Shown: in pieces, positions 3 to 58,889 of the stretch | Numbering within the stretch: position 1 is the first letter of the stretch | How the letters are laid out: each line of letters begins with the position of its first letter | Assembly: GCA_964243215.1 (NCBI GenBank) | Contig: CAXTES010000002.1 | Coordinates: 1 to 58,889, forward strand | Source: an uncultured Microbacterium sp. | GTDB lineage: Bacteria; Actinomycetota; Actinomycetes; Actinomycetales; Microbacteriaceae | DNA: 58,889 nucleotides | Reading direction: 5' to 3' | Notes under the pieces: generated by a model | Seen by the model: the letters and a program-made list of their open reading frames with translations, nothing else | Told to the model about the DNA's origin: nothing | The model's database searches: none | Translations under genes and position numbers: made by a program

Positions 3-374
3 CGTGCGCCGTATTACCGCATCGTCGTGGCCGACTCGCGCACCAAGCGCGACGGGCGTGTCATCGAAGAGATCGGCAAGTACCACCCGACCGAGGAGCC
101 CTCGCTCATCGAGGTCGATTCCGACCGCGCCCAGTACTGGCTCGGCGTCGGCGCGCAGCCGACCGAGCAGGTGCGGGCGCTGCTGAAGCTCACCGGCGAC
201 TGGGGTCGCCACCAGGGCGACGCGAACGCCGTTTCGACGGTGAGGACCGCCGAGCCGAAGCAGGCATTCGCAGCGGATGACGCCAAGAGTTCGGTCGTGC
301 GGCCCAAGGCTGAGAAGAAGGCCCCGGCCGAGGCATCCGTCGACGACGCCGCCGCCGCGACCGACGACGCGTAG
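3..374 (+). CDS. rpsP: 30S ribosomal protein S16 (5' truncated by window edge)
   Basis: [29 protein letters not shown]...[14 protein letters not shown] is the S16 signature; first gene of the rpsP-khpA-rimM-trmD operon. Confidence 0.97.
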
Positions 375-376
375 AC

Positions 377-607
377 GTGCTCGCTGCCGCGCTCGCGCAC
401 GTCGTTAAGGGGATCGTGGATCACCCGGACGACGTGCGCATCGACTCATCCACCTCGTCGCGCGGGGACGTGCTGGAAGTGCACGTCCACCCCGACGATC
501 GCGGGCGGGTCATCGGGCGCGGCGGCCGTACCGCGAAGGCGTTGCGGACCCTGATCACCGCGCTCGCGGACGGCCGGCGCGTGCGCGTCGACGTCGCGGA
601 CGACTGA
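377..607 (+). CDS. khpA: KH-domain RNA-binding protein KhpA
   Basis: 76 aa; VKGIVDHPDDV and DRGRVIGRGGRTAKALR (KH GxxG); position between rpsP and rimM. Confidence 0.93.
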   Translation: MLAAALAHVVKGIVDHPDDVRIDSSTSSRGDVLEVHVHPDDRGRVIGRGGRTAKALRTLITALADGRRVRVDVADD

Positions 608-608
608 C

Positions 609-1250
609 ATGCCCGACGCCAGGCGGACCGCCAGACCGCCGCGGCCCGCCAGGAACCAGTTGCGGGTCGGCCGCCTCGTCAAAGCGCACGGCCTGAAGGG
701 CGCTCTCAAGCTCGAGCTGTACACCGACGAACCGGATCGCCGATTCGTGCCGGGTGCAAGCTTCACGCTGCAGGTGCCCGAATCTTCGCCGTGGCACGGC
801 AAGACCGTCACCGTGCGCGAGTTCAAGTGGATGAACTCCCACGCCGTCGTCTTCCTGGAGGACGTGGATGATCGCACCGCGGCCGAGAGCCTCGTGCGCG
901 CGATCCTGTGGATGGAACAGGATGACAGCGCCGATCCGGTCGAGGACGACGCGTGGTACGACCACCAGTTGGTCGGACTCGAGGTGGTGCGCGACCAGGA
1001 GACCGTGGGACGCGTCGTCAGGGTGGACCACATGCCCGCGCAGGACCTGCTGATCGTCCGCGTCGCCGACGACCGCGAGGTGCTCGTGCCGTTCGTCAAG
1101 GCGATCGTGCCCGAGGTGGACATCGCGGCCGGCCGCGTCGTCGTCACCCCGCCGGTGGGGCTGTTCGAAGACCCGCCGGCCGACGAGGACGCCCCGCTGC
1201 AGCAACCCACGGAGCAGCAACCCGCGGAGCAGCAGACCACGGAGCAGTGA
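609..1250 (+). CDS. rimM: Ribosome maturation factor RimM
   Basis: [37 protein letters not shown]; operon context. Confidence 0.95.
1200..1247 (+). repeat. 15-bp in-frame tandem repeat (about 3.2 copies) encoding [16 protein letters not shown] at the RimM C-terminus
   Basis: cagcaacccacggag / cagcaacccgcggag / cagcagaccacggag / cag. Confidence 0.85.
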
Positions 1251-1251
1251 C

Positions 1252-1932
1252 GTGCGCATCGACGTCGTGACGATCTTCCCGGCGTTCTTCGACGTTCTCG
1301 AGGTGTCGCTGCTCGGAAGGGCGCGCGAGCGCGGGCTGCTCGACTTCCGCGTGCACGACCTGCGCGACCACACCCACGACCGGCACCGCACTGTCGACGA
1401 CACCCCGTACGGCGGGGGCGCGGGCATGGTCATGAAGCCCGAGCCGTGGGGCGAGGCGCTCGACTCGCTGGCGGACGACGACCGGCCGGTCATCGTCTTC
1501 CCCTCGCCGGCGGGAGAGCTGTTCACCCAGGCGACGGCGCGCGAGCTCGCAGCGGCATCCCGCATCGTGTTCGGCTGCGGCAGGTACGAGGGCATCGACG
1601 AGCGTGTCGTCGAGTACGCCGCCACGCTCGGCGAGGTGCGCGTGCTCAGTCTCGGCGATTACGTGCTCAACGGCGGCGAGGTCGCCGCCATGGCGATGAT
1701 CGAGGCGATCGGGCGGCTGATCCCCGGCGTGGTGGGCAACCCGGACAGCCTCGCCGAGGAGTCGCACGAGGACGGGATGCTGGAATATCCGTCGTACACC
1801 AAACCTGCGCAGTGGCGGGATCGTGCGGTGCCGGCGGTGCTGCTCAGCGGAAACCACGCCGCGATCGCGCAATGGCGCCGCCAGCAGCAGGTCGAGCGCA
1901 CCCGGCGACGCCGGCCGGACCTGCTGGACTGA
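1252..1932 (+). CDS. trmD: tRNA (guanine37-N1)-methyltransferase
   Basis: [39 protein letters not shown]. Confidence 0.97.
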
Positions 1933-1994
1933 CCCCGATGCCCGGGAGGGCGACGGGAAGGGCCAGACTGTTGCTCACACCCGGAAGGAGCGCG

Positions 1995-3416
1995 ATGCGC
2001 CGCGCCAAGATCGTTGCAACACTCGGTCCGTCGACATCGTCGTACGAGGTCGTCGAGTCGCTCGTGCGGGCGGGACTCGACGTCGCACGCCTGAACCTCA
2101 GCCACGGCGAGTACGCCGTCCACGAGCAGGCGTACTGGAACGTGCGGCGCGCGAGCGATTCGACCGGTCGCGCGGTCGGCATCCTCGTCGACCTGCAGGG
2201 GCCGAAGATCCGGCTCGGGCGCTTCGCGGACGGCCCGCACGTGTTGCGGCCCGGTGACGCATTCACGATCACCACCGAGGATGTCGTCGGCACGAAGGAC
2301 ATCGTCGGCACGACGTTTCCGCAGTTAGCCGGCGACGTGGTGCCCGGGGACACCCTGCTCATCGACGACGGCAAGGTACGGCTGCGGGTGATCGACACCG
2401 ACGGTGTGCGGGTGCGCACCGAGGTCGTCGTCGGCGGGACAGTGTCCAACAACAAGGGGATCAACCTGCCCGGCGTCGCCGTCAGCGCCCCGGCGATGAG
2501 CGAGAAGGACGAAGCCGACCTGCGGTGGGCGCTGGCGCTCGGTGCCGACCTGGTCGCGCTGTCGTTCGTGCGGTCACCGAGAGACGCTCAGCGGCCGCGG
2601 GTGATCATGGCCGAGGAGGGGCGGCGCATCCCGATCATCGCCAAGATCGAGAAGCCCGAGGCGGTCGAGCATCTGCAGGAGATCATCGACGCGTTCGACG
2701 GGGTGATGGTCGCGCGCGGCGACCTCGGCGTCGAGCTGCCGCTGGCGGATGTCCCCATCGTTCAAAAGCACGCCATCGAGCTCGCCCGGCGCTGGGCCAA
2801 GCCCGTGATCGTCGCGACCCAGATGCTCGAGTCGATGATCGTCAACCCGGTGCCGACGCGGGCGGAGACCTCGGATGTCGCCAATGCGGTGCTGGACGGG
2901 GCGGATGCCGTGATGCTGTCGGGCGAGACGAGCGTCGGTGCGCACCCCGTCACCGTGGTGGAGACCATGGTCCGGATCGTGTCGTCGACCGAGGAGCATG
3001 GCCTTGACCGCATCCCGGCGCTGGGCACGAAGCCGCGCACGCAGGGCGGCGCGATGACGCTGGCCGCCGTCACGATCGCCGACTTCGTCGAGGCGCGCTA
3101 CCTGTGCGTCTTCAGTCAGTCCGGCGACTCCGCGCGGCGCATGGCGCGGCTACGGCACGAGATCCCCATCCTGGCTCTCACCGACCTGCCCAGCACGCGG
3201 TCCCGCCTCGCGCTGACGTGGGGTGTCGAGCCGTTCCTCGTGCCGCGGGTGCCCACCACCGACGAGCTGATGATGGTTCTCGACGATGCGGTGATCGCCG
3301 CCGGTCGCGCCGAGGCGGGGGACAAGGTCGTCGTCACCGCCGGGGCGCCCCCGGGCATCGAGGGCTCTACCAACAACGTGCGCGTCCACATCGTCGGCGC
3401 GCTGCACGGCGAGTGA
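1995..3416 (+). CDS. pyk: Pyruvate kinase
   Basis: MRRAKIVATLGP start after RBS aaggag (1985-1990); ARLNLSHG, DLQGPKIR, MVARGDLGVE, ATQMLESM, PTRAETSDVANAVLDGADAVMLSGET. Confidence 0.96.
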   Translation: MRRAKIVATLGPSTSSYEVVESLVRAGLDVARLNLSHGEYAVHEQAYWNVRRASDSTGRAVGILVDLQGPKIRLGRFADGPHVLRPGDAFTITTEDVVGTKDIVGTTFPQLAGDVVPGDTLLIDDGKVRLRVIDTDGVRVRTEVVVGGTVSNNKGINLPGVAVSAPAMSEKDEADLRWALALGADLVALSFVRSPRDAQRPRVIMAEEGRRIPIIAKIEKPEAVEHLQEIIDAFDGVMVARGDLGVELPLADVPIVQKHAIELARRWAKPVIVATQMLESMIVNPVPTRAETSDVANAVLDGADAVMLSGETSVGAHPVTVVETMVRIVSSTEEHGLDRIPALGTKPRTQGGAMTLAAVTIADFVEARYLCVFSQSGDSARRMARLRHEIPILALTDLPSTRSRLALTWGVEPFLVPRVPTTDELMMVLDDAVIAAGRAEAGDKVVVTAGAPPGIEGSTNNVRVHIVGALHGE

Positions 3417-3423
3417 CGCGGAC

Positions 3424-4206
3424 CTAGGCGACTCCGAGGAACGCGCGGTCGGTCAGCACGATCGGGCCGTCCTCGGTGACGGCCACCGTGTGCTCGGAGT
3501 GCGCGCCGCGTGAGCCGTCGGCGCTGCGCAGCGTCCATCCGTCCGCGTCGGTGACCAGCTCGTCGGTGGTCGCGAGGAACCACGGCTCCAGCGCGACCAC
3601 GAGTCCAGCGCGCAGCGGATAGCCGCGCTCGGGCTTGCCGTCGTTGGGAACGTGCGGGTCGCCGTGCATCACCCGCCCCACCCCGTGGCCGCCGAAGTCG
3701 GTGTTGATCGCGTACCCCTCGCCGGGCGCGACCTCGGCGATCGCGTGGGAGACGTCGCCGATCCGGTGGCCCACGGTCGCGGCGGCGATCGCGGCATCCA
3801 GCGCACGCTCACTGGTGTCGATGAGGCGCAGATCCTCGTCGCGCGGTGTGCCGACGACGAATGAGACCGCGGAGTCGGCGACCCAGCCGTCGACCGATGC
3901 GGCGAAGTCGAGCGACACCAGGTCGCCGTCGCGCAACGCGTAATCGTGGGGGAGGCCGTGCAGCACCGCATCGTTGATCGAGGTGCAGATCACCTTGCCG
4001 AACGGGCTGGCCCCGAACGACGGGTGGTAGTCGATGTAGCAGGATTCCGCGCCGGCCCGGCGGATCATGTCGTGCGCGTGCCGGTCGATCGCGAGCAGGT
4101 TCGTGCCCACCGCCGTCTCGTCGCGCAGGGTCGCGAGCACCTCCGCCACGAAGCGTCCCGCCGGGCGCATCTGCTCGATCTCGGCCGGTGTGCGCAACTC
4201 GATCAT
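3424..4206 (-). CDS. map: Type I methionine aminopeptidase
   Basis: ICTSINDAVLHGLP, DGWVADSA, GGHGVG, ALEP, HSEHTVAVT; start MIELRTPAEI after ggaagga. Confidence 0.95.
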   Translation of the reverse strand: MIELRTPAEIEQMRPAGRFVAEVLATLRDETAVGTNLLAIDRHAHDMIRRAGAESCYIDYHPSFGASPFGKVICTSINDAVLHGLPHDYALRDGDLVSLDFAASVDGWVADSAVSFVVGTPRDEDLRLIDTSERALDAAIAAATVGHRIGDVSHAIAEVAPGEGYAINTDFGGHGVGRVMHGDPHVPNDGKPERGYPLRAGLVVALEPWFLATTDELVTDADGWTLRSADGSRGAHSEHTVAVTEDGPIVLTDRAFLGVA

Positions 4207-4306
4207 CGTGTTCCTTCCGGGGTTGCATCCATTGTGTCCGATGGGTCGCCTGAGAGGATGCCGGGCGGCCGGCGCCGCCACGAGGGCGGGGCGTAGCATC
4301 GACGAC

Positions 4307-4795
4307 ATGTGGCTTCGGCGGGCGTACTACGGCTGGCTGATCCCGGCTGCCTTTCTGCTGCCGCTGTGGCTGCTGCTCGGATGGGGCGTCTTCGACGCCG
4401 GCGGCTGGGCATTCCTGTGGGTGCTGTTCATCGCCGTGCCATCGGTGTTCGCCGGACAGCTCGCACTCACGGTCCTGGTGCGCGCACGCACGTCGGCGAG
4501 GTCGCGGCGAGCGGTGTCGTGGCCGGATGTCGCGGGCTTCACGGTGTGGCACGCCCTGACCTTCGCGCTCGGGTTCTACACCCAAGCGTGGTGGGCCCCG
4601 GTGTTCGTGCTGACCGTAGCCGTCGGGCTCGGCCTGTTCTGGCTCGAGGTGTGGCAATTATGGCGCGAGGCGACGACGACGCGACTGCTGATCAGCGCCG
4701 TCACCGGGGTCGACTCGATCGCCCCGCGGTCGCGTTCCACCGCCCCTGCCCGCGACGTCTACGTCCTCAGCGAGCGGGCACCGGCGCGACGCTGA
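4307..4795 (+). CDS. Hypothetical membrane protein (about 4 TM helices)
   Basis: Hydrophobic Trp-rich segments; TAGCAT -10 lies 7 nt before ATG (leaderless). Confidence 0.75.
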   Translation: MWLRRAYYGWLIPAAFLLPLWLLLGWGVFDAGGWAFLWVLFIAVPSVFAGQLALTVLVRARTSARSRRAVSWPDVAGFTVWHALTFALGFYTQAWWAPVFVLTVAVGLGLFWLEVWQLWREATTTRLLISAVTGVDSIAPRSRSTAPARDVYVLSERAPARR

Positions 4796-4839
4796 GCGCG
4801 TTTTGGCCGGGTTCGGCATCCATGGCACAATGGATGTTT

Positions 4840-4944
4840 GTGCCCTGACGGGGTTCTGCCTCAGGGGGACCCGCCGCAAGGCCTGAGCCGGCGGCTGCGG
4901 GCACGACTTCCACCATCGCATCGCGCTCGACCTGAGGCGGGTGC
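4840..4944 (+). promoter_or_regulatory. Putative structured rplS 5' leader (two hairpins with complementary loops)
   Basis: Hairpin 4849-4873 has loop GCCTCAGG; hairpin 4923-4944 has loop ACCTGAGG; outer pairing gtgccc 4840-4845 with gggcac 4899-4904; candidate -10 CACAAT at 4826-4831. Confidence 0.5.
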
Positions 4945-4958
4945 AGAGAGAGACGATC

Positions 4959-5306
4959 ATGCAGATCCTCGACGCCGTCGACGCGGCCTCGCTCCGCTCC
5001 GACATCCCCCCGTTCAGCCCCGGCGACACCGTCAAGGTGCACGTCAACATCACCGAGGGCAACCGGTCGCGCATCCAGGTCTTCCAGGGGGTCGTCATCG
5101 GCCGATCCGGAGACGGCGTGCGCGAGACGTTCACGGTCCGCAAGATCAGCTTCCAGGTGGGCGTCGAGCGCACCTTCCCGGTGCACAGCCCCGTCATCGA
5201 CCACATCGAGGTCGTCACGCGCGGCGATGTGCGCCGAGCCAAGCTCTACTACCTGCGCAACCTCCGCGGCAAGAAGGCCAAGATCAAGGAGAAGCGCGAC
5301 AACTGA
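4959..5306 (+). CDS. rplS: 50S ribosomal protein L19
   Basis: [52 protein letters not shown]. Confidence 0.98.
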
Positions 5307-5316
5307 CCGTCGCCAT

Positions 5317-5347
5317 CGACGCCCCGGGCTCCGCGCTCGGGGCGTCG
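5317..5347 (+). terminator. GC-rich hairpin after rplS (putative intrinsic terminator, no U-tract)
   Basis: cgacgccccgggc-tccgc-gctcggggcgtcg, 13-bp stem including one G-U pair. Confidence 0.6.
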
Positions 5348-5488
5348 CCGCATTGCGGGATGCGTCGGTCCGTGGCATCCGGGAATCCGCCGTATTCGCG
5401 GCCCAGCGGTCACGATGCACGGTCGCTGATGTGCGACGCTTGACAGTGCGGCCACCCACATGCGGCGTGCCCGGCGGCGAAGGACCCC

Positions 5489-6268
5489 ATGACCAGCGAG
5501 ACCACGGCGGGCGCGGCCAGTGATCCGGCGATCCCGGTGATCCGGCGCGAGGAACCGGTCCGCCGCCGTGGCTGGGTCACATTCCTGCGGGACGTGCTCA
5601 TCATCGTGCTGGTCGCGGTGCTGGTTTCGTTCCTGGTCAAGACGTTCCTCGTCCGCTCGTTCTACATCCCGTCGCAGTCGATGGAAGACACGCTGCTCGT
5701 CCAGGACCGCATCCTCGTCGACGAGATCACCCCGAAGTTCGGCGGCTACGCGCGCGGGGATGTCGTGGTGTTCCGCGATCCGGGCGGCTGGCTTCCGATC
5801 TCGCAGCCCGACGCCCGCCCCGCGATCGTGCAGGGCGTCGATTGGATGCTGTCTCTGGTGGGGCTGTCCGCTCCCGACAGTGACGACCACCTGATCAAGC
5901 GCGTCATCGGACTGCCCGGCGACCATGTCATCTGTTGCGACGCGATCGGGCAGATCACCGTCAACGGCGTGCCGATCGACGAGACGTCCTACGTGAAGCT
6001 GCAACCGGGCGAGACCGTCCCGGAGACGGTTCCGTTCGACGTCACGGTGCCGGCGGATTCGCTGTGGGTGCTCGGTGACAACCGCGACCGGTCCAAGGAC
6101 TCGCGATACAACCAGGAGCAGCCGGGCAAGGGTTTCGTGCCTCTGGGCAACGTGGTCGGGCGTGCGTTCGTCATCACGTGGCCGTTCGACCGCTTCGGCG
6201 CGATCGACTTCCACCACCAGGTGTTCGCCGGTGTCCCCGACCCTACGAAGGCCGGCGCGTCGCCGTGA
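5489..6268 (+). CDS. lepB: Signal peptidase I
   Basis: N-terminal TM, IPSQSMEDTL (catalytic Ser), LIKRVIGLPGD (Lys), GDNRDRSKDSR. Confidence 0.96.
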   Translation: MTSETTAGAASDPAIPVIRREEPVRRRGWVTFLRDVLIIVLVAVLVSFLVKTFLVRSFYIPSQSMEDTLLVQDRILVDEITPKFGGYARGDVVVFRDPGGWLPISQPDARPAIVQGVDWMLSLVGLSAPDSDDHLIKRVIGLPGDHVICCDAIGQITVNGVPIDETSYVKLQPGETVPETVPFDVTVPADSLWVLGDNRDRSKDSRYNQEQPGKGFVPLGNVVGRAFVITWPFDRFGAIDFHHQVFAGVPDPTKAGASP

Positions 6269-6924
6269 CCGTCGTCGAGCCGCGGCTGACGCTCGAGCGG
6301 AGACTCCTGAAGGAGCGTCCGGTGATCATCGCGTGCGACGAGGTCGGACGTGGGGCGCTCGCCGGGCCGGTCGCTGTCGGCGCGGTGGCGGTCGACGCGC
6401 CGCGGGCGCGCAAGCGCGTGCCGGCCGGGCTGCGGGACTCCAAACTCGTGCCCGAGCCCAAGCGGGCGGCGGTCGCGAGCCGGGCGGCAGCGTGGGTGGG
6501 CGGGTCCGCCGTGGGCTGGGCGAGTTCGATCGAGATCGACGAGTTCGGCATCATGCGCGCGCTCGGCCTGGCGGCGATCCGGGCCATCGCCGACCTGCAG
6601 GCGCACGGGGTGGTCGCCGAGGAAGCCATCGTGATCCTCGACGGCAACTACGACTACATCTCCCCGGCGGGCGCCGTCGGCCTGACGGTGCGCCCGGTGA
6701 TAAAGGCCGATCGCGACTGCGCGAGCGCGGCCGCGGCATCCGTCATCGCCAAGGTCGCGCGCGACGCGCTGATGACGGGTCTTCACGACGAGCTGCCCGC
6801 CTACGAGTGGGCGCGCAACAAGGGGTACGCGAGCCCCGAGCACCGTGAGGCGATCCGCGCGCACGGTCTGAGCGCGCATCACCGGTCGTCGTGGGCGATC
6901 GCGGAGTGGCCGACGCTGTTCTGA
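6265..6924 (+). CDS. rnhB: Ribonuclease HII
   Basis: CDEVGRGALAGPV, LRDSK, ILDGN, AAASVIAKVARD, NKGY; GTGA overlap with lepB stop. Confidence 0.95.
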   Translation: MTVVEPRLTLERRLLKERPVIIACDEVGRGALAGPVAVGAVAVDAPRARKRVPAGLRDSKLVPEPKRAAVASRAAAWVGGSAVGWASSIEIDEFGIMRALGLAAIRAIADLQAHGVVAEEAIVILDGNYDYISPAGAVGLTVRPVIKADRDCASAAAASVIAKVARDALMTGLHDELPAYEWARNKGYASPEHREAIRAHGLSAHHRSSWAIAEWPTLF

Positions 6925-6930
6925 GGCGCG

Positions 6931-7392: not shown

Positions 7393-7755
7393 ATGGCGGA
7401 AAAGGATGTGCTGGGGCGAGCCGGTGAGGAGCGCGCCGCGGCCTACCTCGCGGAGCTGGGCTGTACGGTGCTCGACCGCAACTGGCGCGCGCCCGGCGGC
7501 GAGTTGGACCTCGTCGTCGCCGACGGACGCGAGATCGTCGTCGTCGAGGTCAAGACCCGTCGCGGCCTCGGTTTCGGGCATCCTCTCGAAGCGGTCGACG
7601 ATCGGAAGCGCCGGCGCCTGTGGCGCCTCGCGATGGCGTGGGCGGTCGCTCACCCGAAGCACGCGCGAGGACGCGACATCCGCCTCGATGCCATCGCGAT
7701 CGTGGGCGCCGATCCGGCGACCGGGTCGCTCGAACACGTGCGGGACCTGCGGTGA
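7393..7755 (+). CDS. yraN: YraN (UPF0102) family PD-(D/E)xK nuclease-like protein
   Basis: LGRAGEERAA, LDRNWR, GELDLV, VEVKTR, RLDAIAI. Confidence 0.92.
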   Translation: MAEKDVLGRAGEERAAAYLAELGCTVLDRNWRAPGGELDLVVADGREIVVVEVKTRRGLGFGHPLEAVDDRKRRRLWRLAMAWAVAHPKHARGRDIRLDAIAIVGADPATGSLEHVRDLR

Positions 7756-9278
7756 GCGTTGCGCGCACCTGGGCCGTCGCCCTCGTGGGTCTGGAGGGGG
7801 CGCTCGTGGAGGTGGAGGCGGACCTGTCCAACCAGACACCCGGCTTCTCGATCATCGGCCTGCCCGACAAGGCGCTCGGCGAGGCGGCGCTTCGCGTGCA
7901 CAACGCGTGCGTGAACAGCGGGATGTCGCTGCCGCGGCGGCGGCTGACCGTCAATCTGTCGCCGGCGAGCCTGCCGAAGCAGGGGTCGGGGTTCGACGTG
8001 GCGATCGCGATCGCGTCGCTCGCGACCGAGCCGGGGATGGATGCCGCGTCGGTGGCGGCCACCGTGCACCTGGGTGAGCTCGGTCTGGACGGGCGGCTGC
8101 GACCGGTGGCCGGCGTGCTGCCTTCGGTGCTCGCCGCGGCACGGGCCGGAATCGGCCGCGTCATCGTCCCCTATGCGAACCGCGCGGAGGCCGAGCTGGT
8201 GGAGGGTGTCCGAGTTCTGGGCGCGGCCACGCTGGCCGATGTAGCTCGCGCCCACGGAGCCGACGTGATGGACATGAACGTCGAGCCGGTGACGGCCCCG
8301 CCGGCCCCCGAGGAGGCGCCGCCCGCGCTGGATCTGGCCGAGGTCATCGGCCAGCGCGAAGCGGTCGAGGCGCTCATCGTCGCCGCCGCGGGAGGCCACC
8401 ACCTGATGATGAGTGGGCCTCCGGGAGCCGGCAAGACGATGCTCGCCCGGCGTCTGCCGGGGATCCTGCCCGAACTGGACGATGCCGCGGCGCTGAGCGC
8501 GGCATCCGTCCGGTCGCTCGCGGGCGAATCGGTGACATCGCTGTCGCGGACTCCGCCGTTCGAGGCTCCGCATCACACCGCCAGCGTGGCATCGCTGGTT
8601 GGCGGCGGCTCTCGGCTGGTACGTCCGGGCGCGATCGCCCGCGCAAGCGAGGGCGTGCTGTTCCTGGACGAGGCGGGGGAGTTCCCCGCCTACGCCCTCG
8701 ACGCGCTGCGTCAGCCGCTCGAAAGCGGCTCGATCGTCATCCATCGCGCCGGGATGACGGCATCCTTCCCGGCGCGATTCCAGCTGGTCCTGGCCACCAA
8801 TCCGTGTCCGTGCGGCAACTACGGGGTGCGCGGCGCATCGTGCGACTGCGTTCCGCAGGCCATCCGCCGGTACCTCGGCCGGCTGTCGGGACCGTTGCTC
8901 GACCGCATCGACATCGAACTGTTCGTCGCGCGCGTCTCGGTGGCGCAGGCGGCCGCCGGCTCGGTCGTGACCACCACTGATGCCGCGCGCGAGCGGGTGC
9001 GCGAGGCGCGGGCGCGGGCGGCTCGGCGGCTGGCGCCCACGCCGTGGCGCGTCAACGCCGACGTATCCGGGTCGTGGCTGCGTCAGGGACCGTACGCTCC
9101 GACGCCGGTGGAGCGGCGCCCGCTGGATGCCGCGCTGCAGCGCGGTGCGATCACGCTGCGCGGCTACGACCGCGTACTGCGGGTCGCGTGGTCCAACGCC
9201 GACCTGGCCGGTCGGGATCGTCTGCGGCTGGACGACATCGGCCGTGCGCTGTACCTGAAGAAGGGGATCAACGCGTGA
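7752..9278 (+). CDS. comM: YifB/ComM Mg-chelatase-like AAA+ ATPase
   Basis: TVNLSPASLPKQGSGFD, GPPGAGKT, FEAPHH, GVLFLDE, ATNPCPCG, LSGPLLDRID. Confidence 0.94.
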   Translation: MSVARTWAVALVGLEGALVEVEADLSNQTPGFSIIGLPDKALGEAALRVHNACVNSGMSLPRRRLTVNLSPASLPKQGSGFDVAIAIASLATEPGMDAASVAATVHLGELGLDGRLRPVAGVLPSVLAAARAGIGRVIVPYANRAEAELVEGVRVLGAATLADVARAHGADVMDMNVEPVTAPPAPEEAPPALDLAEVIGQREAVEALIVAAAGGHHLMMSGPPGAGKTMLARRLPGILPELDDAAALSAASVRSLAGESVTSLSRTPPFEAPHHTASVASLVGGGSRLVRPGAIARASEGVLFLDEAGEFPAYALDALRQPLESGSIVIHRAGMTASFPARFQLVLATNPCPCGNYGVRGASCDCVPQAIRRYLGRLSGPLLDRIDIELFVARVSVAQAAAGSVVTTTDAARERVREARARAARRLAPTPWRVNADVSGSWLRQGPYAPTPVERRPLDAALQRGAITLRGYDRVLRVAWSNADLAGRDRLRLDDIGRALYLKKGINA

Positions 9279-10486
9279 CCGCGACGACTTTCACCCTCGA
9301 TCGCGCCGAACGGGCGCTGGACCGCGTGATGGTGACGGCGGGATGCGGGGAGCAGGCGCTGCGCCGCGCGTACGCCGCCGCGGTGTGGAGTTGCCTGGTC
9401 GAACCCGGTGACAGCACGGCGGGGCAGCTCATCGCGGCTTTCGGGTCGGATGCGGCGCTGCAGATCGTGAGCACGGGGCGCGCCGACGGGATCGCCGCTG
9501 CAGCATCCGGTCTCTCATCGAAAGACCTGACCGACGGGATCGCGCGGTGGCGGCCTCGCCTCGACACCGGCGCGATCGACCGCGCATTCGACAGCGCCGC
9601 GCGTGCGGGGGTGCGGTTGCTGACGCCGGATGACAGCCGATGGCCGGTGGCCGGCGACGACCTGGGCGCGCACGCCCCGGTGTGTCTGTGGGTGCGCGGC
9701 GACGTCGCCGCGCTCGGGCGTGCGGATCGCTCGCTGGCGATCGTCGGCGCGCGTGCGGCGACCGGATACGGCGAGCACGTGGCGATGGAACTGGCCGCCG
9801 AGCTCTCCGGTCGCGGTGTCACGATCGTTTCCGGCGCCGCGTACGGGATCGACGGCGCGGCGCACCGGGCGGCTCTGACGGCGGGGGGAATGACCGTCGC
9901 TCTCCTGGCCGGGGGTGTGGATCGTCCGTATCCGGCCGGTCATCACCGCCTGCTCGAACAGATCACGGCATCCGGTGCCGTCGCCAGCGAGGTGCCGTGC
10001 GGCACGGCCCCGACCAAGTGGCGTTTCCTGCAGCGCAATCGGCTGATCGCCGCGATGTCCGCCGCGACGATCGTGGTCGAAGCCGGCTGGCGCAGCGGCT
10101 CGCTCAACACCGCCGGCCACGCGGCGGGCCTCGGCCGGCCACTGGGCGCGGTGCCCGGCCCTGTCACCAGCGCCGCGTCGGCGGGATGTCACCGCCTGTT
10201 GCGCGAGTACGACGCCCGGTGCATCACCGGGCCCGACGATGCCGCCGAGCTGCTCGGGCTCGATGCGCGGGACGCATCGCTGTTCGACCCGGGCGGGGCG
10301 CCGCGCACCGACGATCGGACGCGGATCGTCGACGCGCTGACGAGTCGCACGTGGCGTGGCGTCGATGACATCGCTCGGCGCAGCGGCATGGCCCCGACGG
10401 ATGTCGAAGCGCAGCTGGGGATGCTGCAGCTGCTCGGCGAGGCGGAGTGCGACGGCTCGGGGTGGCGTCGCACCCCGCGCACGTGA
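9275..10486 (+). CDS. dprA: DNA-processing protein DprA
   Basis: AIVGARAAT, IVSGAAYGIDGAAH, FLQRNRLIA, VEAGWRSGSLNTA, AVPGPV; C-terminal winged helix. Confidence 0.95.
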   Translation: MTATTFTLDRAERALDRVMVTAGCGEQALRRAYAAAVWSCLVEPGDSTAGQLIAAFGSDAALQIVSTGRADGIAAAASGLSSKDLTDGIARWRPRLDTGAIDRAFDSAARAGVRLLTPDDSRWPVAGDDLGAHAPVCLWVRGDVAALGRADRSLAIVGARAATGYGEHVAMELAAELSGRGVTIVSGAAYGIDGAAHRAALTAGGMTVALLAGGVDRPYPAGHHRLLEQITASGAVASEVPCGTAPTKWRFLQRNRLIAAMSAATIVVEAGWRSGSLNTAGHAAGLGRPLGAVPGPVTSAASAGCHRLLREYDARCITGPDDAAELLGLDARDASLFDPGGAPRTDDRTRIVDALTSRTWRGVDDIARRSGMAPTDVEAQLGMLQLLGEAECDGSGWRRTPRT

Positions 10487-17686: not shown

Positions 17687-18532
17687 ATGGCAAACTTCAC
17701 CATCGCCGACATCAAGTCGCTGCGCGAGCAGCTCGGAACGGGCATGGTCGACACCAAGAAGGCGCTCGAGGAGGCCGACGGCGACCTTGAGCGCGCCGTC
17801 GAGATCCTGCGCCTGAAAGGCGCGAAGGGCAACGCCAAGCGCGCCGACCGTTCCACCAGCGAGGGCATCGTCGTCGCCCGCGAGAGCGACGGCGCCGTCA
17901 CCCTGATCGAGCTGGCGTGCGAGACCGACTTCGTCGCGAAGAACGATCGGTTCATCGCGCTCGCCGAGAAGGTCGCGGATGCCGCGGCCGCCGTCTCGGC
18001 CGACTCGGTCGACGCGGCGCTGACCGCCAGCACCGCGTCCTCGACGGGCTCGGGAACCGGCACGGTCGAACAGCTCATCTCCGACGAGGCCGCCATCATC
18101 GGCGAGAAGATCGAGCTGCGCCGCGTGCGCACGCTGCGCGGCGAGCACTTCGAGGTGTACCTGCACAAGACCAGCAAGGACCTCCCGCCGCAGATCGGCG
18201 TGGTCGTCGCCTACACCGGCGACGATGCCGAGACCGCCCGCAGCATCGCTCAGCACATCTCGTTCGCGAACCCGTCGTACCTGACCCGCGACGATGTGCC
18301 GGATGCCGACGTCGAAAAGGAACGGCAGATCGTCACCGAGATCTCGCGCAACGAGGGAAAACCCGACGCCGCACTGCCGAAGATCGTCGAGGGGCGGGTG
18401 AACGCCTTCTTCAAGCAGGTCGCCCTCCTCGACCAGGATTACGCGAAGGACAACAAGCTGTCCGTCGGCCAGGTCGCCAAGGACGCCGGCATCACGGTCA
18501 CCGATTTCGCCCGGTTCAAAGTCGGCGCGTAA
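17687..18532 (+). CDS. tsf: Elongation factor Ts
   Basis: LREQLGTGMVDTKKAL, ELACETDFVAKN, IGEKIELRR, LLDQDY. Confidence 0.97.
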   Translation: MANFTIADIKSLREQLGTGMVDTKKALEEADGDLERAVEILRLKGAKGNAKRADRSTSEGIVVARESDGAVTLIELACETDFVAKNDRFIALAEKVADAAAAVSADSVDAALTASTASSTGSGTGTVEQLISDEAAIIGEKIELRRVRTLRGEHFEVYLHKTSKDLPPQIGVVVAYTGDDAETARSIAQHISFANPSYLTRDDVPDADVEKERQIVTEISRNEGKPDAALPKIVEGRVNAFFKQVALLDQDYAKDNKLSVGQVAKDAGITVTDFARFKVGA

Positions 18533-42210: not shown

Positions 42211-42336
42211 GTCGCCGAGAGTGCACGCCGGGTCGCCGAGAGTGCACGCCGGGTCGCCGAGAGTGCACGGCGGGTCGCCGAGAGTGCACGGCGGGTCGCC
42301 GAGAGTGCACGCCGGGTTCGCGAGAGTGCACGGCGG
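42211..42336. repeat. Intergenic minisatellite: 6 x 21 bp GTCGCCGAGAGTGCACG(C/G)CGG
   Basis: Units start at 42211, 42232, 42253, 42274, 42295 and 42316 (last one degenerate); no spacers. Confidence 0.97.
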
Positions 42337-42339
42337 GTA

Positions 42340-47414: not shown

Positions 47415-47957
47415 ATGAGCGACACCATCACCATCGTCGGCAATCTCGCCGCCGAGCCGGAGCCCCGCGCGGCGGGCACGATCGCATCGTTCCGCGTGGG
47501 CAGCACGCAGCGCCGCTTCGATAAGGAGTCGGGGCGCTGGATCGACACGTACACGAACTGGTACAACGTGTCGGCCTTCAGGCAACTGGGCGCGCACGCC
47601 CTGCAGTCTCTGCACAAGGGTCAGCGCGTGATCGTCACGGGCAAGGTGAAACTGCGCGAGTGGGAGAACTCGACGGGCAGGGGAACGAGTGTCGACATCG
47701 ACGCCGAGGCGATCGGTCACGACCTGCTGTGGGGCACGTCCGAGTTCCACCGCGGAGACAACGGCGCAGGCTCCACCGAGCAGGCGGTGACCGAGTGGCG
47801 GGTACAGACCCCCGGTGAGGATCAGGGTGATGCGTGGGGGACACCGATGGCACCACCCGCTTCGGCGCCCGAGCCCAGTTCCGCCCCGGAGTCTGCTGCG
47901 GATGATCCTCGGACACCGGAGCCGGCGTATGCGGGAGCGGATGAGGCGCCGTTCTGA
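47415..47957 (+). CDS. ssb: Single-stranded DNA-binding protein (second, SsbB-like paralogue upstream of ettA)
   Basis: ITIVGNL, FRVGST.RRFD, SLHKGQRVIVTG, IGHDL, acidic tail DEAPF; RBS gagagga. Confidence 0.93.
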   Translation: MSDTITIVGNLAAEPEPRAAGTIASFRVGSTQRRFDKESGRWIDTYTNWYNVSAFRQLGAHALQSLHKGQRVIVTGKVKLREWENSTGRGTSVDIDAEAIGHDLLWGTSEFHRGDNGAGSTEQAVTEWRVQTPGEDQGDAWGTPMAPPASAPEPSSAPESAADDPRTPEPAYAGADEAPF

Positions 47958-47994
47958 ACCGGATGCCGGCACGCGATGACCCTAGACTCGCGGG

Positions 47995-50752: not shown

Positions 50753-50771
50753 CGACGGCGCCGACGTCGCG

Positions 50772-51659: not shown

Positions 51660-51660
51660 G

Positions 51661-52554: not shown

Positions 52555-52609
52555 TGCAGCTCCCGTCTTCGTGCGGCACGCGCGTGCGCCGCTTGGTAGT
52601 TTAAGGCGG

Positions 52610-53281
52610 ATGTCGCAGCGCCTCGTGTTCCCCGACCCGCAGGCAGCCGCAGACGTGCTGACCTTCGCCGGCCGGGCCGCGAGGCTCGGCGACACGGCGG
52701 TGCGGCTGCAGGCGAAAGGCGGGACACTCGTCGTCACGACCGCGGCCCTCGCTCCCCGGAGCCTGCTCGACGCCACCCCGACAGTACTGGCGATGCGGAT
52801 GCTGCCGGTGGACGCCGAACTGGAGTGCGACCTCGCCGTCGCGGCATCCGCTCTGTCGGTCGCGCCCGGCGACCCCGCCGCCGTGGTGCTCCCGGAGACC
52901 GGACTCGCCCCGGCGTGGGCGGGGATCGCTCCGCCGCGGGGCGGGTGGGCCCCCACCGGGCAGATCGTGGCTTCGGTGCTGGCATCACGCGCGCAGTGGG
53001 GGATCACCGCGGTCGCGGACCGGTTGCCGACGGATGCCGGCGACGACGTCGTGCGCGCCATCCGCGCCGAGGTCTGGGGTCGACCGGACGACGCGCTGCA
53101 CGGGATGCCCCTCGGCGCGGCGTTCGCCGCGTTCGCCCTCGGGTTCATCGGGGGCGACGAAACCGCCCCGATACTGTCGTCCGGCGCGTGGACGCGGATC
53201 ACCCTGGTGCGCGGGCACGTGCTGGTGCGCGGACCCGTCGCGTCCGGCCTGACACCGGTGCGCCGCACCGGCCCGGCATGA
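52610..53281 (+). CDS. Conserved actinobacterial hypothetical protein
   Basis: WAGIAPPRGGW, AAFAAFALGF, WTRI...RG motifs; TAGTTT -10 leaderless. Confidence 0.8.
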   Translation: MSQRLVFPDPQAAADVLTFAGRAARLGDTAVRLQAKGGTLVVTTAALAPRSLLDATPTVLAMRMLPVDAELECDLAVAASALSVAPGDPAAVVLPETGLAPAWAGIAPPRGGWAPTGQIVASVLASRAQWGITAVADRLPTDAGDDVVRAIRAEVWGRPDDALHGMPLGAAFAAFALGFIGGDETAPILSSGAWTRITLVRGHVLVRGPVASGLTPVRRTGPA

Positions 53282-53333
53282 CCGGTGCGGATGACGGGGC
53301 GCCGAGCGGGCCGCGCGGTGGCAAACTGACCGC

Positions 53334-54341
53334 GTGACAGTCATCGACAACGCGATCTACCTCGAGGGGCGGCGCGTGGCCACACCCGCCGACCTGCACG
53401 ACACCTCCGAGGCGCTGGCGAGCAACGGCGGATTCGCGTGGATCGGCCTGTACCGCCCCGACGGGCTCGAACTGGCTGTCGTCGCGAACGAGTTCGAGCT
53501 GCATCCGCTCGCCGTCGAGGATGCCTTCGTCGGTCATCAGCGGGCCAAGCTCGATCGGTACGGCGACACCCGCTTCGTCGTGCTCCGACCGGCCCGCTAC
53601 ATCGATGCGGACGAGCGCGTCGAGTTCGGCGAGGTCGAGATCTTCGTCGGCACCGACTTCGTCATCGCGGTGCGCCACGCCGAGGCGCCCAACCTCGCTG
53701 TGGTCCGGCACCGGCTGGAGCAGTCGCCGGAACTTCTCGCCCGCGGCCCGCTAGGAGTCCTGTACGCGATCATGGACCAGGTCGTCGACGACTACGCCCC
53801 GGTGATCGACGGCCTCGAGCACGACATCGATGAGATCGAGATGCAGCTGTTCACCGGCGACCCGGATGTGACCAAGCGCATCTACGACCTGTCCGGCGAG
53901 ATCATGGACATCCAGCGGGCGGTGCGTCCGCTGGTGGGGATCATCACCTCGATCCGAGCCGATCTCGAGGCCCGTCACGGCAAGCAGGACTCCGCCCTCG
54001 AGCTGCGCCGTTCGCTGCGGGACGTGCTCGATCACGTCATCCGTGTCGTGGAGAAGGTCGAGGAGTTCCGCCTGACGCTGCAGAACGCGCTGACCGTGCA
54101 CGCCACCCTGGTCGCTCAGCGGCAGAACGAGAACAGCCTCGCGCAGTCCGAGCAGACCAAGAAGATCTCCAGCTGGGCGGCGATCATCTTCGCGCCGTCG
54201 TTGATCACCGGGATCTACGGCATGAACTTCGTCAACATGCCGGAGCTGAACTGGGCGTGGGGCTACCCGGTCGTGCTGCTGCTGATGCTCGCCTTCGCCG
54301 TGTCGCTCTACGTCGTGTTCAAGTCCCGCAACTGGCTTTAG
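53334..54341 (+). CDS. corA: CorA magnesium/cobalt transporter
   Basis: LHPLAVED, HQRAK, GIYGMNF, MPELNW.WGY. Confidence 0.95.
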   Translation: MTVIDNAIYLEGRRVATPADLHDTSEALASNGGFAWIGLYRPDGLELAVVANEFELHPLAVEDAFVGHQRAKLDRYGDTRFVVLRPARYIDADERVEFGEVEIFVGTDFVIAVRHAEAPNLAVVRHRLEQSPELLARGPLGVLYAIMDQVVDDYAPVIDGLEHDIDEIEMQLFTGDPDVTKRIYDLSGEIMDIQRAVRPLVGIITSIRADLEARHGKQDSALELRRSLRDVLDHVIRVVEKVEEFRLTLQNALTVHATLVAQRQNENSLAQSEQTKKISSWAAIIFAPSLITGIYGMNFVNMPELNWAWGYPVVLLLMLAFAVSLYVVFKSRNWL

Positions 54342-54344
54342 GCG

Positions 54345-56018
54345 CTAGACCGCCGCCGCGGCGGCCGCACCGGCGATCCGGCCGGAGAACAGGCATCCGC
54401 CCAGGAACGTGCCCTCGAGGGCCCGGTACCCGTGCATCCCGCCGCCGCCGAACCCGCTCGCCTCGCCGGCGGCGTACAGGCCCGGAATCGGCTCGCCGTC
54501 CGATCCGAGCGCCCGCGCCGAGAGGTCGGTCTCGAGCCCGCCGAGCGACTTGCGGGTCAGCACGTGGAGCTTGACGGCGATGAGCGGCCCCGCGGCGGGA
54601 TCCAGGATGCGGTGCGGCGTCGCCGTGCGGATCAGCCGGTCGCCCCGGAACGCCCGGGCCGAGCGAAGCATCGCGATCTGGGCGTCCTTGCTGAAGTCGT
54701 TGTCCATCTCGCGGTCGCGGGCGTGCACCTCGAGGCGGACCCGGTCGGCGTCGAGCACCTCGCCGCCGGGCAGCGCCGTCATCCCGGCGATGAGATCGTC
54801 CAGGTCGTCGCGCACCACGAAGTCGGCGCCCGAGTCGAGGAACGCCTGCACCGGACCCGCCGCGCCCTTGCCGAGTCGTGACCGCAGCAGCAGCCGCACG
54901 TCTTTGCCGGTCAGGTCGGGGTTCTGCTCGCTGCCGGACAGCGTGAACTCCTTCTCGACGATGCGGCGCGACAGCACGAACCAGGAGTGGTCGTAGCCGG
55001 TGCGCCGCAGGTGGGCGAGGGTACCCAGGGTGTCGAACCCGGGAAACAGGGGCACCGGCAGCCGGGCGCCGGTGGCGTCGAGCCACAGCGACGACGGTCC
55101 TGGCAGGATGCGGATGCCGTGACCGGGCCACACCGGATCCCAGTTGCGGATGCCCTCGACGTAGTGCCACATCCGGTCCTCGTTGATCACCCGTGCGCCG
55201 GCCGCCTGGCCGACGGTCAGCATGGACCCGTCCACGTATGCCGGGACGCCGGCGACCATCGTTTCGGGCGGGGTGCCCAGCCGGGCCGGCCAGTTGCGAC
55301 GGACCAGATCGTGGTTGCCGCCGATGCCGCCGGCCGCGATCACGACGGCGCCCGCGGTGATCTCGAACGATCCGACGACCTCGCGGGATGTCGACACCCC
55401 GCGAGCGGCACCGGACGGTGCCAGCACGTCGCCGGCGGCGCCCGTCACGACGCCGCCCGACACCGTGAGCGCGGTGACGCGATGTCGACCCATGATGACC
55501 GCTCGGCCGTCGGCTTCACCCTCCTCGACCGCCTTCTGGAACGGCGCGACGATGCCCGGCCCGGTGCCCCAGGTGATGTGGAAACGCGGCACCGAGTTGC
55601 CCGGTCCGGTCGCGGTGTAGCCGCCGCGCTCGGCCCATCCGACCACCGGGAAGAAACCGACGCCGTGCTGGCGCAGCCAGGTCCGCTTCTCGCCGTCGGC
55701 GAATTGCAGGTACGCCTCCGCCCACCGCCGGGGCCAGGCATCCTCGTCGCGGTCGAATCCGGCGGTGCCGAACCAGTCCTGGCGGGCCAGTTCGAGCGAG
55801 TCCGAAACGCCCAGTCGCCGTTGCTCGGGCGAATCGATGAAGAAGAGGCCGCCGAACGACCACCATGCCTGACCGCCGAGGTTCGTGCGCGGTTCTTGAT
55901 CGACGACGATGACGCGTCTGCCCGCCGCGACTGCCTCCGACGCCGCGACCAGCCCGGCCAGTCCCCATCCGATGATGAGGACGTCGGTGTTGTGCCGGGT
56001 GGTGGGGATGCCGTTCAT
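54345..56018 (-). CDS. FAD-binding dehydrogenase (KsdD-like family)
   Basis: [48 protein letters not shown]. Confidence 0.9.
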
Positions 56019-56479
56019 GCCGGTTCGTCCGTCGCCGCCGTGATATCCAGTCCGCCGCTACGGCCGGCGGCCGCGGGGCCGATGCCGGCGGGCTCGAACG
56101 TGTTGACCATCGCGAAAGCAGCGCGCTGCAGGTAGTCCCACAGCGTCGCCTCGTGCAGCGGGGACAGACCCAGTTCGTCGACGGCGGCGCGCATGTGGTG
56201 CAGCCAGTGGTCGCGCGCCGTCGGGTCGACGTGGAACGGCAGGTGACGCATCCGAAGCCGGGGATGCCCGCGCTGCTGGCTGTACGTCGTCGGGCCGCCC
56301 CAGTACTGCTCCAGGAACATCCGCAGCCGCTCCTTCGCACCGTCGAGCTGTTCCTCCGGGTACATCGGGCGCAGCACCGCGTCCTCGGCGACACCGCGGT
56401 AGAAGGCGTCGACCAGGCGGACGAACGTGTCATGCCCGCCCACTTCGTCGTAGAAGCTGAGGAACGAGTCGGCCGTCAC
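56015..56479 (-). CDS. glbO: Group II truncated hemoglobin
   Basis: [31 protein letters not shown]. Confidence 0.93.
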
Positions 56480-57534
56480 GGCGTCGAACCCCCGTCGCTG
56501 GGCGGAACGTGCGGGTCGGCTTTGCCGATCTTCTTGGGCCGCCACGCCGGCCGCTCGATCGGCGGCACCGGATTGGGCTTGGTCTTCGGCGGGTTCGCGC
56601 CGCGCACGCGTTGGGCCCCCTCCAGACCCGTCAGCGTGATCGAGTTCAGCTGCGGCAGCTTCAGTCCCATTCCGTCGATCGCGTTCTTCAGGCGCATCCG
56701 CAGCTCACGGGCCACATCGTCTTTCGCGTTGGCGCGGGTCTTCATCACGAGCCGGGTCACCAGCGCATCGCCGGTGACCGACTCGAGCCCCCAGACCTCC
56801 GGCTGCTCGATGATGCGCGAGCGCCACTTCGGATCCTTCGCGAGTGCTTTCGCGGCGGCCAGCAGGCTCTTTTCGACCTCGGTGATGTCGGCATCCACCG
56901 GAACGGCGAGGTCGATGATGACCCGCGACCAGCCCTGCGACATGTTGCCGATGCGCAGGATCTCGCCGTTGCGGACGTACCACAGCGTGCCGTTGACGTC
57001 GCGGATGTGCGTGACCCTGACGCTGACGTACTCGACGATGCCGGTGGCCAGGCCCACATCCACCACGTCGCCGATGCCGACCTGGTCCTCGGCGACGAGG
57101 AAGATGCCGTTGAGCACGTCTTTGACGATGTTCTGCGCCCCGAACCCGAGTCCGGCGCCGATCGCCGCGGTCAGCAGCGTGAGCGATCCCAGGGCGGTCG
57201 GGGCGAGGGTGTTGACGATCAGCAGCAGCACGATCAGGACGATCGTGACGTTGACGATGTTCTGCAGGATCGATCCGAGCGTCCGGGTGCGCTGGACCAG
57301 ACGCAGCTGGTTCAGCGGCGAGTGCTCGAGCGCCCGGGTGTCGTCGACGTTGGCGCGGCCCTTGGCCCCGTTGACGACGCGGGCAACGATCCGCCGGATC
57401 ACCAGCCGCAGGATCCATGCCAGCAGCACGCCGCCGACGATGATCCCCAGGACGATCAGGGCGTTCACGCCGGCCGCCGCGAAGAACGCCGCGACATCCG
57501 CCCACGGATTCGGCTGCGTCACCTCGAGGTTCAC
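56476..57534 (-). CDS. mscS: Small-conductance mechanosensitive channel family protein
   Basis: [36 protein letters not shown]. Confidence 0.92.
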
Positions 57535-57539
57535 CGTCG

Positions 57540-58889
57540 CTACTCCGCGTCGCGCTCCTGCACGGCGAGAGCCCGTTCCACACCGGCGAGGTTCTCTTCG
57601 ACGAGACGGCGCAGGGCGGGAGGCGCGTCGACGTGGTCGGCGAGCCAGCCGCGGGTGGCGTCTCGGAGGGCGGCGTCGGCCAGCGGCGCGGGATACAGCC
57701 CGTCCACGAGGTACTGCGCGATCTGATAGGTGCGGGACTGCCAGATCTGCTCGAGCATCTCGAAGTACGGCGCGACGTAGGCGGCGAGCAGATCCCGGCC
57801 GGCCGGATGGACGAAACCGAGCGCGGCAGAGCGCAACACGGTGTTCGGCAGGTTCGCGTCGCCGACGAGCGTGTCCCACGCGGCGCGCTTGGCCTCGGCG
57901 GTCGGCAGCGCCGCGCGAGCCTGGGCTGCGAACTCGCCGCCTTTCGCGGTGTTGTCCGCCGTCAGCGCCTCATCGATGTCGGCGGCCGTCACGACGCCCC
58001 CGGCTGCGAGCGACACCAGCAGCTGCCACGACAGGTCGGTGTCGATCGTGAGACCGTCCAGCGCTATCTCGCCGTCGCGCAGCGCGCGCACGATCTGCCA
58101 CTGCGACGGTGTGGATGCCGCGCTGGCGAACGCGGTCACGAACTGCAACTGGCTGTCGCTGCCGGCCTGCGCTGCCTGCGCGAGCGCCCAGAGGCCGTCG
58201 GCGACCTTCTCACGGGTCGCGTCGCGGTGCGCGGGAGTGACGTACGAGTTCGCGGCGAGTTGCAGCTGCGCCAGGGTGGTGCGCACCGTCGTGGATTCGG
58301 TCTCGGCCCCGATGTTGCGCAGGACCAGGTCGAGGTAATCGCTGGGGGATGCCTCGGCATCCCGGGTCTGATCCCACGCCGCGCCCCAAACCAGAGAGCG
58401 GGCGAGCGGGTCGGAGATGGCGGACAGGTGGGCGATCGCGGTGCGCAGCGACCGCGCGTCGAGGCGGATCTTGGCGTAGGCGAGGTCTTCATCGTTGAGC
58501 AGGACCAGGTCGGGGCGTGCGATCCCCTTCAACTCGGCGACATCGGTGCGGTCGCCGTCGACGTCGAGCTCGATGCGGTGCACGCGCACCAGCGCGCCGT
58601 CGTCGAGGCTGTAGAAGCCGACGCCGAGCCGGTGCGGGCGGATGGTCGGGTAGTCGGCGGGCGCGGTCTGCACGATCGCGAATCGCGAGATGCGACCGTC
58701 GGCGGACTCCTCGATGAGCGGTGACAGCGTGTTCACGCCGGCTGTCTCGAGCCACTTCTTCGACCAGCCCGACAGCTCGCGTCCGCTCGTGGTCTCCACT
58801 TCGGCGAGCAGGTCGGCGAGCTCGGTGTTGGACCACTCGTGCTTCGCGAAGTACGCCGCGACCCCGGCGAAGAACTGCTCGATACCCAC
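57540..58889 (-). CDS. pepN: Aminopeptidase N, C-terminal part (5' end outside window)
   Basis: WLETAGVNTL, RPHRLGVG.Y, LLNDEDLAYAK; typical pepN-mscS-glbO synteny. Confidence 0.92.
   Translation of the reverse strand: MGIEQFFAGVAAYFAKHEWSNTELADLLAEVETTSGRELSGWSKKWLETAGVNTLSPLIEESADGRISRFAIVQTAPADYPTIRPHRLGVGFYSLDDGALVRVHRIELDVDGDRTDVAELKGIARPDLVLLNDEDLAYAKIRLDARSLRTAIAHLSAISDPLARSLVWGAAWDQTRDAEASPSDYLDLVLRNIGAETESTTVRTTLAQLQLAANSYVTPAHRDATREKVADGLWALAQAAQAGSDSQLQFVTAFASAASTPSQWQIVRALRDGEIALDGLTIDTDLSWQLLVSLAAGGVVTAADIDEALTADNTAKGGEFAAQARAALPTAEAKRAAWDTLVGDANLPNTVLRSAALGFVHPAGRDLLAAYVAPYFEMLEQIWQSRTYQIAQYLVDGLYPAPLADAALRDATRGWLADHVDAPPALRRLVEENLAGVERALAVQERDAE

Follow-up and report, generated by a model that had tools for sequence, protein, structure and literature searches.

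The GGATGCC word in the window and the genome

The window analysed here is a contig (C2) of 58,889 nucleotides from an uncultured Microbacterium sp. of the family Microbacteriaceae, phylum Actinomycetota (GenBank CAXTES010000002.1, assembly GCA_964243215.1). It carries rpsP, tsf, dprA and genes of the comM/YifB and ssb families (Table 1) and, dispersed over positions 332 to 58362, 103 copies of a non-palindromic heptamer read as GGCATCC (55 copies) or GGATGCC (48 copies), where 100 dinucleotide shuffles gave an expectation of 14.4 ± 4.0. The first-pass annotation of the window had put these figures at about 100 and about 14, and each of the 24 coordinates that it listed (24/24) matches exactly. 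The source genome (G000; 3.0 Mb, 70% GC, 89% complete), the RpsB of which best matches records named as Microbacterium, contains a total of 5,722 copies in 2,996,994 bases, equivalent to 1.9 per kb or about one per kb per strand. Observed/expected (O/E) ratios are 8.2, 6.5, 4.0, 1.8 and 1.2 at Markov orders 0, 2, 3, 4 and 5, respectively, the last being the genome-wide fifth-order count that the annotation had proposed, and GGATGCC ranks first among the heptamers of G000 under orders 2 and 3.

Within the 2,946 genes of G000, called by a self-trained model, there are 5,078 copies compared with 1,308 ± 29 in 20 within-gene synonymous shuffles, an excess of 3.9-fold. Moreover, the word is built from codons that are otherwise disfavoured, as had been claimed: aspartate is written GAT in 2,145 of the 2,599 G-Asp-GCC contexts, against 21% genome-wide, and alanine GCA in 1,321 of the 1,630 G-Ala-TCC contexts, against 6.6%. 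Thus neither a synonymous-shuffle ratio near 1 nor equal use of GAT and GCA outside the word, the two results named beforehand as fatal to the claim, was found. Five of the six reading frames are enriched 2.2- to 25-fold; the exception is the Gly-Ile frame, about which a caveat had been entered, at just 1.5-fold. Copies between genes, also reported earlier, number 551 against 85 expected (6.5-fold), and their density of 1.96 per kb is the same as that in coding DNA. The Asp-Ala dipeptide is mildly over-represented in the G000 proteome (O/E 1.17); the ratio is 1.01 for relatives poor in the word and 0.97 for genomes from other families. Orthologous word sites are common to word-rich relatives in 65 of 199 cases, compared with 24 of 514 at non-site Asp-Ala positions, although the relatives are not independent.

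Table 1. Positions of genes, representative word copies and a repeat array in the window.
Feature	Position	Strand	Remarks
comM/YifB-family AAA+ ATPase gene	7752..9278	+	Pfam Mg_chelatase, E 6e-82; context only
dprA	9275..10486	+	Pfam DNA_processg_A, E 2e-66; context only
ssb-family gene	47415..47957	+	Pfam SSB, E 6e-17; context only
Word copy in rpsP	332..338	+	Ala-Ser codons GCA-TCC; frame enriched 25-fold genome-wide
Two word copies in tsf	17977 and 18301 (17977..18307)	-	GGATGCC on coding strand; Asp-Ala frame enriched 5.8-fold genome-wide
Inverted pair GGATGCC-NN-GGCATCC	58347..58362	both	9-base offset
Tandem 21-base unit, six copies	42211..42338		Follows a gatB-like gene

The core of the 21-base unit occurs in 122 copies in G000, many of them in 21-base arrays, and constitutes a small dispersed family unrelated to GGATGCC.

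Orientation-specific spacing

Pairs of GGATGCC in the same orientation are depleted below 600 bp in G000 while those in opposite orientations are not. In a logistic model covering 8,273 opportunity sites, at which the encoded protein permits the word, a same-strand neighbour gave odds ratios of 0.43 within 100 bp, 0.67 at 100–300 bp, 0.75 at 300–600 bp and 1.0 beyond, and an opposite-strand neighbour gave 1.1 to 1.24, the latter value within 100 bp. This same-strand avoidance is the most extreme among 237 heptamers. Weak variants, for example GGATGC[AGT], are also repelled by the full word, without 5'/3' asymmetry. No preferred spacing between copies was found in G000 out to 3 kb, and the most frequent short spacing is the inverted pair with a 9-base offset (27 pairs). 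The same-strand effect recurs in two other genera, in the genomes G091 (68/111) and G126 (15/41); 80 rpsB loci were left out as a replicate, as they repeat the same orthologous sites.

A control was provided by Haemophilus-type uptake signal sequences (USS), using 48 USS-rich metagenome loci, which are not fully independent, with 619 USS and the USS core as search motif (PMC3458573). These loci show 39 same-orientation against 74 opposite-orientation pairs at 60–450 bp (p 0.001), and 756 against 719 beyond 600 bp. Avoidance of same-orientation USS to about 450 bp is not stated in the available portions of the USS literature examined. We conclude that the Microbacteriaceae have a genuine genome word in GGATGCC, with its copies spaced according to strand.

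Distribution and dialects

The density of GGATGCC/GGCATCC ranges from 0.34 to 2.25 per kb in 18 congeners, from 0.07 to 1.9 per kb over 220 Microbacteriaceae genomes and from 0.18 to 0.41 per kb in 12 genomes from other families. Several genera poor in GGATGCC carry variant words, every one of which contains GGA: the palindrome GGATCC (5,698 copies in G068 and 2,683 in G035), GCAGGA(G/T)C in G128, GGAGGCGC in G070 and GGATGCG in G047. Since the word of G128 shows the same orientation-specific spacing (12/35, 14/40 and 52/86), the variants are likely to belong to one system. Dialects with a common core, a feature by which DNA uptake sequences (DUS) and USS are recognised, are present family-wide. 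No word was detected in the sample of G085 or in most samples of small-genome Microbacteriaceae, nor in samples of 18–40 kb taken from 11 genomes outside the family, all of a size that weak words would escape.

In one stretch of G228 (L371; C1, 1-20000), GGATCC is enriched 3.6-fold, though the whole genome has just 340 copies; the stretch is possibly DNA from a donor of the GGATCC dialect.

An extended, one-sided site

The heptamer forms part of a longer site, described here with offsets counted from the first G of GGATGCC. At synonymous positions of G000, in both sense and antisense genes, G is preferred at -6 and -9 and A at -3 on the 5' side, and G at +7 and +9 on the 3' side, where C-over-G peaks follow at +12, +15, +21, +30, +39 and +45 (z 5–20). 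The 3' flank has a period of about 8.5–9 bases reaching to +45, and the G at -6/-9 and C at +12/+15 constitute a partial dyad. Similar peaks flank the intergenic copies, and a control heptamer lacked such a pattern. The +12, +21 and +30 peaks recur in G091 and that at +21 in G126, while G128 shows a broad C-rich tract. The site is one-sided and about 60 bases long.

A wider halo concerns the GGA trinucleotide on the strand of the word, which, after codon control, reaches 94% of expectation at -320..-40, 87% at +10..+45 and 104.5% at +80..+200. In each of the three near windows around the word no other trinucleotide deviates more, and the opposite strand and control anchors are flat. The halo recurs in G091 and G128 and in part in G126; around USS the raw halo, taken without codon control, was weak and of opposite sign. 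The asymmetry implies that whatever reads the word has a direction.

Accessory DNA and phages

Most of the 15 long word-free gaps of G000 that were inspected hold accessory clusters. Unlike these, one 4.1-kb word-free stretch (C7, 31766-35896) lies within the core glutamate synthase gene gltB.

Thirteen Microbacterium phages were counted, some in part, over stretches of up to about 50 kb. Eight of the 13 are enriched in the rare-codon frames of the word (p ≤ 0.02; 14/2.6 in PaoPu and 30/4.7 in Fizzles, the most enriched), and none (0/13) avoids the word as it would a restriction site; the same test on eight bacterial samples from outside the family yielded 24 against 22.5. PaoPu carries 24 sites in 17.4 kb and has no annotated replication or recombination genes. 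Enrichment was found in 7 of 8 phages without an annotated PolI or DnaE and in 1 of 5 with one. No significant enrichment is seen in four phages that encode PolI or DnaE and for which the part covered includes no annotated integrase; Barnstormer, with both PolI and an integrase, is enriched. The temperate phage Min1, which has no polymerase, shows no enrichment. Phages lacking an annotated integrase carry the word at up to 5–6 times expectation. As phage DNA is injected and would bypass an uptake machine, these results shift weight towards a reader inside the cell. Chi-rich phages are also known (PMC12315714).

Two further phage observations were made. Fizzles is annotated with a DprA-like gene (L407, 3170-3691), and GGATCC is absent from the called genes of phages Jayden, Gingerbug and Appa (L122, L123 and L125), where 8–13 copies are expected, which suggests restriction pressure or palindrome avoidance.

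How the word may be read

The first-pass annotation had attributed the word to a sequence-specific process, either biased uptake, a recombination signal or methylation-directed repair. A sequence-specific process acting at the DNA level is supported by the results above; biased uptake and a recombination signal both remain in contention and methylation-directed repair fits poorly. No reader was identified among the AdnAB, competence and methyltransferase genes searched.

Our leading interpretation, put forward tentatively, is that the word constitutes a Chi-like mark, recognised on intracellular DNA by a machine with a single direction of travel. The most likely candidate is a helicase-nuclease that resects breaks, such as AdnAB, which G000 encodes on contig C102. 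AdnAB, or a similar enzyme, would meet the word as a signal to stop degrading and start recombining. At a two-ended break, and likewise in linear DNA entering the cell, either end would need a site of its own in the proper orientation, such that a second copy on the same strand would add little while an opposite-strand copy would keep its value. The Chi-like reading accounts for the orientation-specific spacing, the one-sidedness of the site, its scarcity in acquired DNA and its enrichment in phages. Chi is likewise scarce in acquired DNA (PMC8022716) and also depends on its 3' flank (PMC5041463). Two assumptions have to be added: that two-ended breaks or incoming linear DNA outweigh fork collapse, which would explain the lack of strand polarity, and that AdnA, although intact, is able to read sequence.

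A number of observations weigh against such a mark. Known Chi sequences are usually polarised, and the polarity check proposed at first pass revealed no replichore polarity, as seen for Chi or the FtsK-orienting polar sequences (KOPS), in the contigs of G000 or in the complete genome G126, where 260 of 541 sampled sites lie on the leading strand; the result resembles that for DUS. Strand counts in G000 are, moreover, under-dispersed across 62 contigs (chi2 30); a DnaA_N search for placing origins gave no match. Non-polar Chi candidates have, nevertheless, been reported in Vibrio (PMC8022716). AdnA was found in 36 of 37 genomes searched and is also present where no word was detected. All 28 aligned sequences (28/28), a set that leaves out three further loci, keep the Walker A motif, and inspection of the first 400 residues by eye revealed no change specific to the family or to a dialect. 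AdnA resembles the mycobacterial protein, with its ATPase motifs intact, and does not show an inactivated helicase-like reader domain of the RecC/AddB type. A dead AdnA-like ATPase has been linked to Chi recognition, and no Chi is known for AdnAB (PMC5314763). The same-strand spacing cannot tell Chi from uptake, because USS show it too, the GGA halo is not repeated 5' of the word in G126, and a 9-base periodic flank to +45 is not described for Chi in the available parts of the literature examined. Among the phages, same-strand pairs show no spacing (30/57 against 29.7 expected), the division by polymerase was drawn post hoc (Fisher p 0.03), with GC content as a confounder, and Fizzles encodes its own recombinase yet tops the enrichment, unlike the lambdoid pattern.

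It is also possible, if less probable, that the word is a DNA uptake sequence of the DUS/USS type, driven into the genome by biased uptake and recombination. This would best match the genomic anatomy: the word is non-palindromic and non-polar, alike in sense and antisense, present in coding and non-coding DNA and accompanied by graded mismatches, its dialects share GGA as the dialects of the Neisseriaceae share CTG (PMC3630211), its periodic flank is one-sided as are the two phased T-tracts of USS (PMC3458573), and its spacing is that of the USS-rich loci, although the latter are not fully independent. Furthermore, comEC was found in 61 of 61 genomes searched, comEA in 30 of 30 and the Tad ATPase in 60 of 60. 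These competence genes are, however, equally present in genomes without the word, and accordingly the comM-family gene, dprA and ssb of the window, offered as a hint at first pass and borne out by the Pfam matches, carry little weight. Uptake also explains the phages poorly, as their DNA is injected and those without an annotated integrase still carry the word, and the flank period is not that of a helical turn. Only one tad ATPase was found in G000 and in the word-rich, 99%-complete G016, with no second in either, while Micrococcus luteus needs two tad clusters (PMC4322843), and a regular-expression search of G000 revealed no type IV prepilin motif. Of an uptake machine, comEA, comEC, dprA and a single tad cluster are present, and no receptor was identified.

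Two observations relate to these genes. In G128, two strong pilus-type ATPase matches adjoin one another (C1, 2795828-2798540), an arrangement absent from the other four genomes examined alike. An alignment of 20 ComEA sequences (in G000, L146 320-850) shows LPR at the first helix-hairpin-helix of 16; in G128, G070 and two genomes from outside the family this element has LPG. The arginine pattern occurs in 146 of 220 family genomes and at few true ComEA sites outside, but it is missing from the word-rich genera g20, g58 and g59 and present in the word-free genus g67.

An unlikely alternative is a repair bias at the host replisome that spreads the word as mismatched or heteroduplex DNA is corrected, the site steering which strand is rewritten, such that site-making errors would be fixed and site-destroying errors reversed unless a same-strand site lay near. 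This predicts the lack of polarity, the same-strand repulsion with mild opposite-strand attraction within 100 bp, the indifference to expression and the build-up in phages that use host replication. However, the phages lack the spacing, no enzyme is at hand, and the non-word codons keep their normal GCG:GCC:GCT proportions in word context (p 0.6), so that a drive would not be limited to transitions, the class mainly repaired by actinobacterial NucS.

It is distinctly improbable that the word is bound by a protein or filament that organises the chromosome and covers about 60 bases. The extended periodic flank and partial dyad would suit such a role, and a link with chromosome architecture has been drawn for the highly iterated palindrome HIP1 (PMC5861425), but this reading leaves the repulsion restricted to the same orientation and the one-sided halo unexplained, and there is no preferred spacing.

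Still less probable is a HIP1-like arrangement, with the word modified by a methyltransferase and kept in place by methyl-directed repair. In its favour, GGATG and GCATC both lie within the word, GGATCC is among the dialects, and all the word-rich genomes searched (15/15) carry a conserved PF01555 methyltransferase in single copy. This enzyme, however, is 63–85% identical, with a near-invariant central region, across genomes of the GGATGCC, GGATCC, GCAGGA(G/T)C and GGAGGCGC dialects and word-free genomes, and in G000 the two neighbours of its syntenic site enclose no such gene, just a 159-bp gap without N (C45, 1946-2106; the assembly is 89% complete). On these two grounds it was rejected as the reader. 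No cognate methyltransferase that follows the word, as expected for HIP1, was found. Searches of G000 for D12, N6_N4 or C5 methyltransferases yielded no match and one N6 enzyme lies on a word-poor contig of this incomplete assembly; in five genomes no FokI- or AlwI-family match was found, and control searches gave no match either. The rejected PF01555 enzyme, an orphan N6/N4 methyltransferase (L393-L403), is highly conserved in the Microbacteriaceae and also occurs in certain further families of the same order.

The chance that the signal acts on RNA appears slight. Rho loads on C-rich tracts and CsrA recognises a GGA core, and the site, with its C-over-G tract 3' of the word, resembles both. 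The strength of the word is slightly higher in antisense (3.7 log-odds) than in sense (3.2) and shows no trend along an expression proxy, and in G000 copies are not concentrated downstream of stop codons or where two genes converge, nor are they fewer inside operons.

Finally, a by-product of codon or dipeptide usage, with which the modest Gly-Ile frame and the low fifth-order ratio would agree, is ruled out by the excess over synonymous shuffles, the intergenic enrichment and the orientation-specific spacing.

Relation to known systems and significance

The word falls short of membership of the Chi class, on polarity and reader, and of the HIP1 class, on palindrome and methyltransferase, and it could at most be filed provisionally as a DUS. 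Like the Chi sequences of RecBCD and AddAB, it is short and non-palindromic, with an orientation that may matter, lineage variants, flank dependence and possible phage enrichment (PMC8022716, PMC5041463, PMC5314763), and it is over-represented and scarce in acquired DNA, the gltB stretch excepted. Chi is, however, usually polarised and occurs once per 5 kb in Escherichia coli, while GGATGCC is non-polar, occurs about once per 0.5 kb and belongs to a host with AdnAB. With the USS of Pasteurellaceae and the DUS of Neisseriaceae it shares equal use of the strands, occurrence in genes and intergenic DNA, dialects with a short core, a one-sided periodic flank and same-orientation spacing (PMC3458573, PMC3630211, PMC1939737); it differs in having seven bases, an Actinomycetota host, no type IV pilin receptor found and a presence in phages without an annotated integrase, and uptake is known for USS/DUS only. 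HIP1 and the alternative HIPs are likewise very dense against codon habit with variant words in sub-lineages, and the GGATCC dialect is palindromic as they are (PMC4390886, PMC5861425), but GGATGCC itself is non-palindromic and strand-spaced and no matching methyltransferase was found.

No published description of GGATGCC/GGCATCC as a genome word was found in the literature searched, which was mostly non-subscription and did not include the octamer list in the supplement of PMC8022716. Specific uptake sequences have been described for two proteobacterial families (PMC1939737), and a Chi-like signal of AdnAB is stated to be not known (PMC5314763). On balance, we lean slightly towards the view that the word represents a family-wide, dialect-forming system of DNA self-recognition in the Microbacteriaceae, the first in the Actinomycetota, with a site of about 60 bases the core of which is copied by phages dependent on host replication. 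It would then be either the missing Chi of AdnAB, with an AdnA that is not inactivated and a sequence that is non-polar, or a third, independent origin of uptake sequences.

For both the AdnAB-Chi question and that of uptake, the word offers a concrete substrate in hosts that can be cultured and for which many phages have been collected, and its dialects offer a route to the reader via co-variation. Recoding the word could change how efficiently Microbacterium and related bacteria are transformed or recombine.

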